Assembly (NCBI GenBank): GCA_965650365.1 | Contig: CBFGOJ010000016.1 | Span: 12,710 to 76,709 of the forward strand | Source of the DNA: an uncultured Fluviicola sp. | Lineage (GTDB): Bacteria; Bacteroidota; Bacteroidia; Flavobacteriales_D; Crocinitomicaceae | Length of the DNA: 64,000 nucleotides | Reading direction: 5' to 3' | Shown here: positions 54,902-58,378 of the stretch, piece after piece | How the letters are laid out: every line of letters begins with the position of its first letter | Numbering within the stretch: the stretch's first letter is position 1 | Position numbers and translations under genes: made by a program | Notes under the pieces: generated by a model | Databases searched by the model: none | Seen by the model: the letters and a program-made list of their open reading frames with translations, nothing else | What the model was told of the DNA's origin: nothing

Positions 54902-55780
54902 TCAATTTTCAATTTTCACCTGATTGATCTTAAAGCAATAGAGCATTTTCTGCGTCTGGACGTACAAACGATCACCCGAAACCTCCATTTTCAGTATTTT
55001 GGAATCAAGTACGGCATCTCCTGCGAAAAAAAATGCAACAAATTCCGCATTGAGATCTATTGTTTGAATGTTTTTGCCCTCGGCGATCAGGAAATAGTCC
55101 TGGATCGGGTAAATGGGCTTGTTGGGAATTAACGTGGCCACATCCATAAAATTTCCGAATTGATCGAACCAGGCAACCTGGTTGACTTCGTCAAATAAAT
55201 ACAGGCGGTTATCAATTTCTTGTATGTTGACAATGGATTTCATGTTCAGCAGCCCTTTTACATTCTGAATCAATTGTCCTTGTGAATTGCGCAGTGTAAT
55301 CAGTTCTATTTGTGAATTCGGTTCGTCGTAAATCCAAATGCGGTCTGTTTGAATGGAAGCGCTCATGCTTGCTGCCAAGCTGATGTTCAGATCGCTTAAA
55401 TAAATGCATTCTCCCTGCAAGGCCAAAGCATTGTCCAAAAAACAAATACTTTGCTGATCTTCGGAAAAAAGGGCAATTTTCAAAGGGTTTTGAGCATCTA
55501 TCTTTTGAATGTTCCCAAGCGACTTAATACTTTCCTGCAGCATGACCTGTCCTTTGGCATCCCGCTTTTGAATATTCTGATTTTGATAAATGATACTTTG
55601 ATGAATCGGGTCAATGTCCCAGATAGCCGTTGAGTCCAGGTCAATGTGCCAGAGTTCTTTCCATGTTTGCTGTGCACTTCCCAAAAGGGGAACTGCTGTC
55701 AGTAGAACCAAACCAAAAAGTCTAGACATATTGAAGGGTTTCGAACTCCGCGTCCTGCAAGATCTGTTCCACGATTTCAC
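54902..55780 (-). CDS. Hypothetical exported beta-propeller-like protein
   Basis: Signal-like segment, FLDNAL, DRIWIYD and FDQFGNF motifs. The true start is probably about 55729. Confidence 0.65.
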   Translation of the reverse strand: MKSWNRSCRTRSSKPFNMSRLFGLVLLTAVPLLGSAQQTWKELWHIDLDSTAIWDIDPIHQSIIYQNQNIQKRDAKGQVMLQESIKSLGNIQKIDAQNPLKIALFSEDQQSICFLDNALALQGECIYLSDLNISLAASMSASIQTDRIWIYDEPNSQIELITLRNSQGQLIQNVKGLLNMKSIVNIQEIDNRLYLFDEVNQVAWFDQFGNFMDVATLIPNKPIYPIQDYFLIAEGKNIQTIDLNAEFVAFFFAGDAVLDSKILKMEVSGDRLYVQTQKMLYCFKINQVKIEN

Positions 55781-57254
55781 GTGAGTTCATCAAGCGGGGA
55801 ACTTTGTGTTGTCCACCTAATTTACCTTTTTTTTGTAACCAGGCATCAAAACTTCCTGATTTTAAACTATGCAGCAGCGGTTTGCCCAGGGCCATATTTT
55901 TGGTGCGTTTGGCATCGTAATCCGAATTGATAGTGCGAAGTGATTCATCCAGCAGGAACATAAAGCGATTCAGATCATCCGGTTTCCGGTCGAATTCAAT
56001 GAGCCACTCATGCCTGGCTTGTGTTTTTCCATCCATATAGATCGGAGCAACCGTATATTCCCGGATAATTGCATTTGTTTTGGAAGAAGCTTCCGCAATG
56101 GCAAAATCGGCATTGTTTACAATGACTTCTTCTCCAACAGAATTAATGAAATGCTTCGTTCGTCCGGATAACTTAAACCGGTAAGGTGCCTTAGAGGTAA
56201 AACGAATGGTATCTCCTACAATATAGCGCCAAAGACCTGCGTTGGTTGAAATGACCAGTGCATATTCTTCACCTGTTTCTACCTCATCCAGTTTGTAAAT
56301 GACTTTGGAATCGGTGTCTTCAAAAGCATGCATGGGAATGAATTCGTAGAAAATGCCGTAATCGAGCATCAACAGCAATTCATCGGATCTGTCCACATCC
56401 TGGATCCCGAAAAATCCTTCCGAAGCATTGTAGGTTTCCACATAATGCATGTCGTCAAAAGGAATGAGTTCACGGAATGCTTGTCGGTAAGGTTCAAAGC
56501 TCACACCGCCGTGCATGAAAAGTTCGAGGTTCGGCCAGACCTCCCGCAAATTCGATTTCCCGCTAATCTCCAGTATTTTTCGCGCCAAAACCATTGTCCA
56601 GCTCGGAACACCGGCTATGATGTATACATCTTCTTCGATCGTACTTCGGGCCATGAGTTCAATTTTCTCCTCCCATTCGGTCATTAAGGCAATCTCTTTG
56701 GAAGGAGTTCTGCGAATTTCGGCCCACCAAGGCAAATTTTTAACAATAATAGCAGATAAATCTCCCTGGTACGCGTCTTCTGCAAGGGGAAGAACCTGCG
56801 CACTTCCGCCTATAATGAGGTGTTTTCCTTTATAAAGTTTCCTGTTGGGGAAATTCTCATAATACAAAGCAAGTAAGTCTTTTCCGCCTTTGTAATGACA
56901 GTCTTCCAGGGATTCCCGGCTCACTGGAATGAATTTGCTTCTGTCGGAAGTTGTTCCGGAGCTTTTTGCAAACCATTTGGTTTCCTGGGACCACAATAAA
57001 AACTGTTCTCCCTCCATCAAACGATCGATCCATGGTTTCATGGACTCATAATTGTTTAAAGGAACCAGTTCTTTAAAGTCGGAATAAGATCGGATTTGAT
57101 GAAAATGGTTTTGTCTGCCATAACTGGTAAGGTTTCCCTGTTCAATCAATTTTTCGAAGAGTTCATTTTGAACATCTTCCGGGTATTTTCGAAACAGCTC
57201 GATCTGATGCAAGCGCTTTTTAATTACCCATGCAAAAATTGAATTGAATGGCAT
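55722..57254 (-). CDS. GH3 auxin-responsive-promoter family acyl-adenylate/amido ligase
   Basis: FAKSSGTTSDRSKFIP, ETYNASEGFF, GLWRYIVGDT, GGQHKVPRL. Confidence 0.92.
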   Translation of the reverse strand: MPFNSIFAWVIKKRLHQIELFRKYPEDVQNELFEKLIEQGNLTSYGRQNHFHQIRSYSDFKELVPLNNYESMKPWIDRLMEGEQFLLWSQETKWFAKSSGTTSDRSKFIPVSRESLEDCHYKGGKDLLALYYENFPNRKLYKGKHLIIGGSAQVLPLAEDAYQGDLSAIIVKNLPWWAEIRRTPSKEIALMTEWEEKIELMARSTIEEDVYIIAGVPSWTMVLARKILEISGKSNLREVWPNLELFMHGGVSFEPYRQAFRELIPFDDMHYVETYNASEGFFGIQDVDRSDELLLMLDYGIFYEFIPMHAFEDTDSKVIYKLDEVETGEEYALVISTNAGLWRYIVGDTIRFTSKAPYRFKLSGRTKHFINSVGEEVIVNNADFAIAEASSKTNAIIREYTVAPIYMDGKTQARHEWLIEFDRKPDDLNRFMFLLDESLRTINSDYDAKRTKNMALGKPLLHSLKSGSFDAWLQKKGKLGGQHKVPRLMNSREIVEQILQDAEFETLQYV

Positions 57255-57276
57255 ATGCTGATATTCAGTGAAATAG

Positions 57277-57297
57277 AAAAGTCCGCCGCGGCGGACT
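57277..57297 (-). terminator. Terminator-like perfect palindrome after the His-rich small ORF
   Basis: AGTCCGCCGCGGCGGACT is an 18-bp perfect palindrome followed by TTT on the minus strand. Confidence 0.65.
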
Positions 57298-57304
57298 CCT
57301 TATA

Positions 57305-57445
57305 CTAAGCGAATGCGTATATAGATCCGATAATTGCTAATAGGATCACAGTATACACAAACCCAATTCCTACTGTTGAACTTTCAAAGAAAGTATCATT
57401 CTTATCGTGGTGATCCGAATGATGATCTGAATGATGATCTGACAT
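57305..57445 (-). CDS. 46-aa His-rich single-pass membrane peptide (not in ORF track)
   Basis: MSDHHSDHHSDHHDKNDTFFESSTVGIGFVYTVILLAIIGSIYAFA*. TAAATTTG box at 57462-57469 and a terminator downstream. Confidence 0.75.
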   Translation of the reverse strand: MSDHHSDHHSDHHDKNDTFFESSTVGIGFVYTVILLAIIGSIYAFA

Positions 57446-57496
57446 AACTTCTAATTTTTTCCAAATTTAAGATTTTGTTTGAAAAACCGAAAGAAA

Positions 57497-58207
57497 TTAA
57501 TCATTGTTTGAGCCAATTAATCTCATCAGGTAATAGATCATGGTTACGATTGCTCCAAGAGCTGCAACAACATAGGTTGAAGCTGCCAGGTTCAGAGCTT
57601 TCTTGGAACGTTCATACTCGGCTCTCGTTGCTGTTCCTGATTGTTCAATCCAGGCCAGGGCTCTTTTGGATGCATCGAATTCTACCGGAAGTGTTACCAG
57701 GCTGAATAATGCAATCACACCATAAGCGCTCACAATTGCCCAAAGTACCCATTTGATCGGGAAAGATTCGAAAAGAACGGCGCCTCCAATAAATGTAAGC
57801 ATCATCAGGATGTTTAAAAACAAACCTGAAGCGTGCTGGAGGGGAACTAGTTTTGACCGCCACTGAAGTGGAGCGTATGCCTTAGCATGTTGAACGGCAT
57901 GTCCGCATTCGTGCGCAGCAATTGCTGCTGATGCCGCGTTTGTTCCATGATAAACTTCTTCTGAAAGGTTCACGGTTTTTTCCGCCGGATTGTAATGATC
58001 GGTTAATTGTCCCGGAATGCAGGTTACACGAACATCGTAAATGTTGTAATCACGAAGCATGCGTTCGGCAATTTCACGGCCGCTTAAACGACTTTGAGAG
58101 GGAATTTTGCTGAATTCCTGGAATTTGCTTTTTAAGCGCCAACTCACTATTAGTCCAATTCCAATAAAGACTAAACCTATGAGCATCGCAGGTCCGAATG
58201 GTATCAT
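57497..58207 (-). CDS. Putative neutral zinc metallopeptidase (Zn_peptidase_2/YugP-like)
   Basis: LTDHYNP, AAHECGHAVQHA (HExxH), TLPVEFDASKRA, AASTYV. Start likely ATG at 58207. Confidence 0.92.
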   Translation of the reverse strand: MIPFGPAMLIGLVFIGIGLIVSWRLKSKFQEFSKIPSQSRLSGREIAERMLRDYNIYDVRVTCIPGQLTDHYNPAEKTVNLSEEVYHGTNAASAAIAAHECGHAVQHAKAYAPLQWRSKLVPLQHASGLFLNILMMLTFIGGAVLFESFPIKWVLWAIVSAYGVIALFSLVTLPVEFDASKRALAWIEQSGTATRAEYERSKKALNLAASTYVVAALGAIVTMIYYLMRLIGSNND

Positions 58208-58378
58208 CGATTCTGTATTTTCCTCAAATTTAAGCAAGAAAAAACCTGCTATACTTGAATTTTAGCAGGTTTTAACTTAAAGAATGTTATGTAAATCAGT
58301 CTCGCCCTCCGAATAAACGAAGCAAAGAAAGAAACAGATTTATAAAGGTTCAAATAATTAGATGTTTGAACGCTTTTA

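Follow-up and report, generated by a model that had tools for sequence, protein, structure and literature searches.

A conserved single-helix micro-protein gene preceding a GH3-type gene in Crocinitomicaceae, and its candidate role as a membrane partner of the GH3 module

In the genome of an uncultured Fluviicola sp., a very short open reading frame with three pairs of histidine codons lies between a membrane metallopeptidase gene and a gene of the GH3 type. The question raised by this locus is whether such a frame encodes a protein at all and, if so, whether the product acts through its histidines, in connection with the peptidase gene upstream, or with the GH3 gene downstream. The stretch analyzed, referred to here as the window, comprises 64,000 nucleotides. 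An earlier note on the same DNA had taken the frame for a monocistronic gene and had proposed that its product buffers or senses metal or regulates the peptidase. The reading that we favor, with a probability of roughly 0.55, is that the frame is a real micro-protein gene, that it forms the first cistron before GH3, and that its product serves the GH3 module as a small partner in the membrane.

The micro-ORF is located on the minus strand, inside the span 57277–57469 to which the earlier note referred, and encodes the 46-residue product MSDHHSDHHSDHHDKNDTFFESSTVGIGFVYTVILLAIIGSIYAFA. The description given in that note holds for the parts of the locus: the three SDHH units, encoded by a 12-nt repeat, are present, and the ORF has both a promoter box of its own and a palindromic hairpin after its stop codon. 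The coordinates are collected in Table 1. An antisense ORF of 37 amino acids overlaps the micro-ORF on the plus strand (57334–57447); the selection pattern described below matches the minus-strand frame.

Table 1. Features of the micro-ORF locus and its neighbors, in window coordinates.
Feature	Position	Strand	Basis or remark
Zn_peptidase_2 membrane metallopeptidase, upstream neighbor outside the conserved unit	57497..58237	-	PF04298, E 2e-76
Promoter box TAAATTTG, Bacteroidota-type -7	57462..57469	-	16 nt between its G and the ATG
Short A-rich leader GAAAAAATTAGAAGTT	57446..57461	-	Without Shine-Dalgarno sequence
Micro-protein gene	57305..57445	-	46 codons and TAG stop; dN/dS ~0.14
12-nt tandem repeat, (SDHH)3, variable disordered N-terminal tail	57411..57442	-	Tandem Repeats Finder, allele indels, pLDDT 54–60
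Conserved 30-codon core, DTFFESST and predicted transmembrane helix, AFA at end	57308..57397	-	Family alignment, AlphaFold2
Terminator-like hairpin (57280–57297) and U-run (57270–57279)	57270..57297	-	-17 kcal/mol fold, kept in relatives
GH3-type acyl-acid amido synthetase gene, OlsH-related, without own promoter box	55722..57254	-	PF03321, PF23571, PF23572
Third gene, secreted six-bladed NHL-like beta-propeller	54902..55729	-	Start overlaps GH3 stop; signal peptides, AlphaFold2, Foldseek, synteny

Short ORFs are frequent in this region, with 69 ORFs of at least 25 amino acids in 6.5 kb. A 46-codon ORF preceded by one TAnnTTTG box is therefore unremarkable when taken alone, and the status of the micro-ORF as a gene rests on its conservation. 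A word-indexed search yielded 23 protein clusters of 38–46 amino acids, and a full HMMER search of 1.84 billion representatives revealed further distant members of 34–48 amino acids. In an alignment of 35 distinct DNA sequences, the last 30 codons are free of gaps and vary mostly at third positions, with entropies of 13.9, 10.6 and 36.9 per codon position and a mean dN/dS of ~0.14 for the 30-codon core. The codon-position entropy and the dN/dS value thus indicate a selected protein and not an RNA element, and the codon-position pattern led us to reject the alternative of a regulatory RNA. A search of positions 56800–58000 against Rfam at permissive thresholds returned chance-level snoRNA and miRNA matches only. 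Judged by this comparative evidence, the micro-ORF is a genuine gene under purifying selection, with the signature of translation.

The exact window protein is absent from a collection of 15 billion proteins, and its homologues are labeled "hypothetical protein" in RefSeq, as in WP_013685809.1 from Fluviicola taffensis. No Pfam or NCBIfam family was matched by the window protein in a profile search. The best Pfam match across 23 family members had an E-value of 0.029, and the best match of the family alignment in a profile search of the PDB an E-value of 0.21, neither of which is significant. By these searches, the micro-protein family is undescribed, being part of no curated Pfam or NCBIfam family and of no PDB structure.

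A search for homologues, as the earlier note had proposed, revealed a broadly distributed family. Profile matches were found in 107 of 121 genomes of the Crocinitomicaceae, covering 28 of its 29 genera, with one copy per genome. Five more families of Flavobacteriales also contain matches, namely f3 (20/37 genomes), f7 (11/15), f13 (6/12), f14 (4/4) and f15 (1/1), and there were none in f10 (0/36), f12 (0/27), f11 (0/9) and f4 (0/8). Outside the order, a single weak partial match was obtained among 251 genomes of the class. The weak matches in other families correspond to ORFs of 31–35 amino acids, such as MADKHFDETTATIGYIYVILALVVIGCILFLG and MSDNYFHENSGTIGYIYTAVA..., and were accepted as real because their position relative to GH3 is the same. 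On the genomes searched, the family is limited to Crocinitomicaceae and a few neighboring families of Flavobacteriales. Two database entries seem out of place in this distribution. In CP034120.1, a record with the title Glaciecola amylolytica strain THG-3.7, complete genome, the locus is of the Fluviicola type, at 86–96% protein identity over five genes, and CAZOAH010000001.1, a metagenome-assembled genome titled "uncultured Akkermansia sp.", carries a locus of the Crocinitomicaceae type. Judging from these loci, both titles look wrong.

The peptide set comprises 113 distinct family members with a median length of 34 amino acids (range 31–53). The conserved part is formed by the C-terminal 30 residues, which consist of a juxtamembrane motif [FY]F[DE]xST followed by about 22 hydrophobic residues, VGIGFVYTVILLAIIGSIYAFA being the 22-residue stretch of the window protein. 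The final residue is usually Gly (96 of the 113 peptides), and Ala in the window protein itself. The AlphaFold2 model calculated from the family alignment consists of one helix spanning residues 15–45, with pLDDT values of 88–97, and a disordered tail at residues 1–14; the single C-terminal helix of the earlier note is thereby borne out. Lys or Arg is present in the N tail of 60% of the sequences, as against 2% at the C end, and many members have no Lys or Arg at all and a tail of net acidic charge. The protein is predicted to be a single-pass protein of the cytoplasmic membrane. According to the Lys/Arg bias, the N tail probably lies on the cytoplasmic side (N-in); the bias is a weak indicator in view of the many members that lack these residues.

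The tail that precedes this core is far more variable. Tandem Repeats Finder reports a period of 12, with 2.7 copies and 95% matches, and the DNA reads TCA GAT CAT CAT twice, followed by TCG GAT CAC CAC, so that six His alternate with Asp and Ser in the window protein. This 12-nt unit was found at no other gene in the genome. That the number of repeats could vary, as anticipated in the earlier note, is correct: members from Fluviicola have 3, 2, 1 or approximately 0 (degenerate) units of S-D/E-H-H, one cluster at 90% identity includes forms of 46, 42 and 39 amino acids, and the alleles align at the DNA level with clean in-frame gaps of 12 or 24 nt. As a disordered N-terminal tail, the (SDHH)3 tract gains and loses length by steps of 12 nt. 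Conservation of the histidines, for which the note had also asked, was not found. The N tail has no His in 62 of the 113 distinct peptides, one in 20 and at least four in 21, so that the protein does not qualify as a His-rich metal-binding protein with a conserved tract. At least six more lineages (g22, g24, g25, g28, f13 and P0025) have tails of their own that are rich in His/Asp/Glu and unrelated in sequence. A long His-rich tail is present in all four f13 loci examined, such as MSHDNHGHDQEHDHGHEHGSEH..., and an example from g28 is MSADHDHGHDDHGHGHEEEG.... This recurrence suggests that the tails are selected in those lineages and are not noise. Where a lineage carries such a tail, it is predicted that it probably binds divalent metal, as an add-on to the family core.

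The promoter box that precedes the micro-ORF belongs to a type of signal that can be recognized across the genome. TAnnTTTG is not enriched in the window as a whole (65 matches versus 62 expected). It is found upstream of 615 of 3287 long ORFs genome-wide, compared with 94 in the coding control, and its spacing to the ATG displays two peaks, at 4 nt and at 16–20 nt, the latter of which includes the spacing of 16 nt at the micro-ORF. Among the 122 distinct loci of the family, 78 have the box 12–23 nt before the ATG, and most of the others have TAnnTTTA at the same place. The 4-nt peak comprises 104 genes in the whole genome, suggesting leaderless mRNAs. A second copy of TAAATTTG is located at 58225–58232 (minus strand). 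This copy falls within the Zn peptidase ORF as read from its TTG start, and an in-frame ATG follows 17 nt later, at 58207. That ATG is probably the true start of the peptidase, which would then have a promoter of its own with the same geometry.

Behind the TAG stop, the strand reads TATAAGG, followed by the palindrome AGTCCGCCGCGGCGGACT and then by TTTCTATTTC, with the U-run UUUUCUAUUU directly after the palindrome. The hairpin region is GC-rich and folds with z = -2.67, the folded structure beginning 3 nt past the stop. The hairpin was not called in a sigma-70/simple terminator scan, a procedure that is unsuited to Bacteroidota promoters. Under a strict test, a hairpin with a U-run is present behind the stop in 64 of 124 loci, with differing stem sequences. 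In Fluviicola it is nearly universal, with its stem 1–5 nt past the stop, and at least three unrelated stems occur there: GGAGGAA...TTCCTCC, GAGTCCGCC...GGCGGACT and GAGTCTCCCG...CGGGGGACT. It is the structure of the hairpin, and not its sequence, that is conserved. In f3 and f7, the gap to GH3 is often of 18–29 nt and has no hairpin. The 16-nt core of the palindrome, GTCCGCCGCGGCGGAC, has 10 strand-wise matches in the genome, contigs C16 and C17 included; this sequence is its own reverse complement, so the 10 matches amount to five sites, at least two of which are on contig C17 (at 41442 and 41568).

Downstream of the hairpin, the GH3 gene has all three GH3 domains, and its ATG in the window lies 50 nt past the micro-ORF stop, about 15 nt past the U-run. 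The same neighborhood recurs throughout the family. Of 36 loci found by similarity, 35 have GH3 as the next gene downstream, and so do all metagenome loci of distant members whose length reaches that far, as well as 16 of 20 loci of other families, in which the GH3 identity is 45–61%. Overall, it follows the micro-ORF in 83 of 122 distinct loci from five families, across a gap whose median is 57 nt and which can be as short as 12 nt. The TAnnTTTG box occurs in only three of these 83 gaps, so that transcription of GH3 must begin at the micro-ORF promoter or farther upstream. The term monocistronic, as used in the earlier note, is thus doubtful. The micro-ORF is, by this arrangement, the predicted first cistron of a GH3 operon in about two thirds of the loci.

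The GH3-like enzyme OlsH forms N-acyl ornithine from fatty acid, ornithine and ATP, and many GH3 homologues of Bacteroidota are uncharacterized and have been proposed to make other N-acyl amino acids; in general, GH3 enzymes join amino acids to acids (PMC12493201). The downstream protein scores 406.6 bits with the OlsH model NF052613, below the equivalog cut-off of 620, and was therefore not accepted as an OlsH equivalog. A literature search returned no paper on a small protein linked to a bacterial GH3. The third gene of the locus encodes a secreted protein of ~270–275 amino acids without a Pfam match. Its AlphaFold2 model (pLDDT 88, pTM 0.83) is a six-bladed NHL-like propeller whose top Foldseek match is 7nyq_B (E 4.8e-12). 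The propeller gene lies behind GH3 in most loci of Crocinitomicaceae, f3, f14 and f15, and was not detected there in f7.

The pairing with GH3 has clear exceptions. In g6, g10 and g17, it is a DUF4290-like gene and murA that come after the micro-ORF. Within g18 (L047–L051), an inorganic pyrophosphatase gene stands between the micro-ORF and GH3, joined in two loci by an extra gene of 254 amino acids, or GH3 is 5–11 kb away, and the upstream neighbors folE, Bax1-I and the Zn peptidase are retained. The micro-ORF is also placed elsewhere in f13, g24, g15 and some single genomes. The peptide is still conserved in all loci where the micro-ORF sits away from GH3. Conversely, orthologous GH3 genes with 56–59% identity in the families f10, f11, f12 and f2 have no comparable upstream ORF. 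GH3 therefore does not need the micro-protein, which these comparisons place as at most an accessory of GH3. One GH3 gene of f11 (L100, G130:C1) is preceded by the ORF MVSMRFNFFDYKSDTFSIIYSVLAVEAAKENLFLRCSQ, which ends 7 nt before the ATG and has NFFD and IIY as in the family, with a broken hydrophobic stretch. This ORF could be what is left of a decayed member, or it could match by chance.

The synteny with the zinc peptidase, which the earlier note had suggested checking, is not conserved. The peptidase gene is upstream in 23 of the 36 loci found by similarity, in one of 20 further loci of the family and in none of 20 loci from other families, and it is absent even from some Fluviicola loci. 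Other upstream genes include Bax1-I, a GldL_N-like gene, a Kelch-like gene on the opposite strand and a gene for a 600-residue protein. The linkage to the peptidase was rejected on this synteny, and the micro-protein appears to have no specific tie to it.

In the favored reading, the micro-protein would be a small membrane partner, either anchor or modulator, of the GH3 module. The module probably makes a membrane-bound N-acyl amino acid and would, with such a product, have to work at the membrane, where both the fatty-acid substrate and the N-acyl amino acid product would reside. With the N tail in the cytoplasm, the FFExST face could contact the soluble GH3 and hold it, or tune it, at the membrane. 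The hairpin of Fluviicola would act as a leaky internal terminator, yielding much micro-protein and less GH3. Since it lies beside the stop codon, a terminating ribosome could suppress it, and read-through would then depend on translation of the micro-ORF. The preservation of the pair in five families despite differing upstream genes was counted in favor of the partnership. A more specific version, in which GH3 has in the micro-protein a subunit dedicated to its docking at the membrane or to its regulation, and in which the His-rich tail, in lineages that have one, makes the synthesis of N-acyl amino acid lipids metal-responsive, seems to us distinctly unlikely.

One alternative is that the small membrane protein is independent of GH3, its gene having a promoter and a terminator to itself, and that the place of the micro-ORF before GH3 is an inherited gene order without functional meaning. 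The loci at unrelated places, where both sequence and promoter box are kept (before DUF4290-murA, and in f13 after alanine racemase-like genes), agree with this alternative, as do the hairpin and U-run behind the stop in about half of the loci and the GH3 orthologues that have no micro-ORF. It accounts less well for a pairing that persists over five families in which GH3 identity is no higher than 53–61% and the upstream genes are different, for gaps of only 12–29 nt that have no hairpin, and for the near absence of the promoter box from the GH3 gaps; we consider it unlikely, though deserving some weight. The proposal of the earlier note, in which the His repeats make the protein a Zn/Ni/Cu buffer or sensor tethered to the membrane, or let it regulate the neighboring Zn metallopeptidase, can draw on the six histidines of the window tail, on the recurrence of differing His/Asp/Glu-rich tails in other lineages and on the upstream neighbors in Fluviicola, the PF04298 Zn peptidase, PTPS and GTP cyclohydrolase I, all three of which we take to be zinc enzymes. 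It is improbable nonetheless: more than half of the members have no His and it is the helix core that is conserved, the peptidase is missing at many loci, and the repeat slippage among close relatives fits a weakly constrained tail.

Two further alternatives were weighed. The micro-ORF could be a cis-acting leader, translation of which up to the stop melts the hairpin and lets the polymerase read into GH3; optionally, its His codons might sense charged tRNA-His, as in a his-type attenuator of reversed polarity. The position of the Fluviicola stem, within reach of a terminating ribosome, the lack of a promoter of GH3's own and the coupling of amino acids with acids by GH3 enzymes (PMC12493201) are compatible with such a leader. 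What makes it quite improbable is that the peptide sequence, and not merely the frame, is conserved and persists away from GH3, that half of the loci have no hairpin, and that most members have no His codons, those present being ~100 nt from the hairpin; nor was an alternative antiterminator pairing seen in folds of the region from the stop to GH3. Finally, the micro-protein could be a precursor or substrate peptide, whose C-terminal Gly carboxylate, or N-terminus, is activated or conjugated by the adenylating GH3 enzyme. The prevalence of a C-terminal Gly and the order of small ORF, hairpin and adenylate-forming enzyme are in keeping with this idea, but the window protein ends in Ala, known precursor peptides do not resemble the hydrophobic helix that is conserved in this family, genes for an exporter, a protease or immunity are missing from the neighborhood, and many members do not adjoin GH3. 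This last explanation is highly improbable.

Taken alone, the gene would be one more uncharacterized small membrane protein; its interest comes from the link to GH3 and from the natural series of tail lengths more than from the His repeat itself. If the micro-protein is indeed a docking or regulatory subunit of GH3, no other small protein would have been described before it as a partner of any GH3 enzyme. Bacteroidota have GH3-like genes in great numbers (PMC12493201), and a conserved micro-protein that shares its promoter with one of their lineages would provide a handle on the place and working of the enzyme. The family, with and without a His tail and with differences in 12-nt steps, also constitutes a compact natural series for testing the function of the tail.

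A comparison with known systems helps to place the micro-protein. His-rich metal proteins, such as Hpn, the N-terminus of HypB, the tails of SlyD and UreE, and the loops of CDF and ZIP proteins, have in common with it a disordered tract of His with Asp, Glu and Ser. Its own tract, by contrast, is short (six His), varies by slippage and is absent from most homologues, and the conserved unit was found to include neither genes for metal handling nor metal regulators. Leaders of the hisL type resemble the locus in that several His codons stand in a short ORF, behind which come a hairpin with its U-run and a longer gene. In the micro-ORF, however, the His codons are in pairs split by Ser-Asp and make up 3, 2, 1 or 0 units depending on the relative, GH3 instead of a gene of histidine biosynthesis lies downstream, and the peptide is a conserved membrane helix. 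The folds of the region between the stop and GH3 contain the terminator hairpin only, with no competing antiterminator structure. A hisL-type attenuator leader was rejected, given that there is no conserved run of consecutive His and no his genes downstream. A small ORF, a hairpin and an adenylating enzyme follow one another in a similar way in microcin C, but no microcin C-like genes for export, immunity or processing were found, the neighbors being the beta-propeller, deoxynucleoside kinase, Bax1-I, folE and PTPS genes.

The ornithine-lipid pathway OlsH/OlsI of planctomycetes is related through the downstream gene, which encodes a bacterial GH3-type protein akin to OlsH (PMC12493201). The micro-ORF operon differs in having no OlsI-like gene, and no micro-ORF is among the described parts of the planctomycete operon (PMC12493201). 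The closest likeness in size and setting is to AcrZ, KdpF, CydX, MgtS and MgrB, which have fewer than 50 residues and one transmembrane helix, are found in a limited clade and are often encoded in the operon of a larger partner. With 46 amino acids and a predicted helix at residues 15–45, the micro-protein has the dimensions of such proteins, and, as for AcrZ, KdpF and CydX, it appears to share one transcription unit with its neighbor, as judged from sequence. It has no sequence similarity to any of the five, and its predicted partner would be a soluble-type GH3 adenylating enzyme. To our knowledge, no such small subunit is known for GH3 adenylating enzymes. By analogy, and as a member of none of their families, the micro-protein would thus resemble the small single-pass accessory proteins AcrZ, KdpF, CydX and MgtS.
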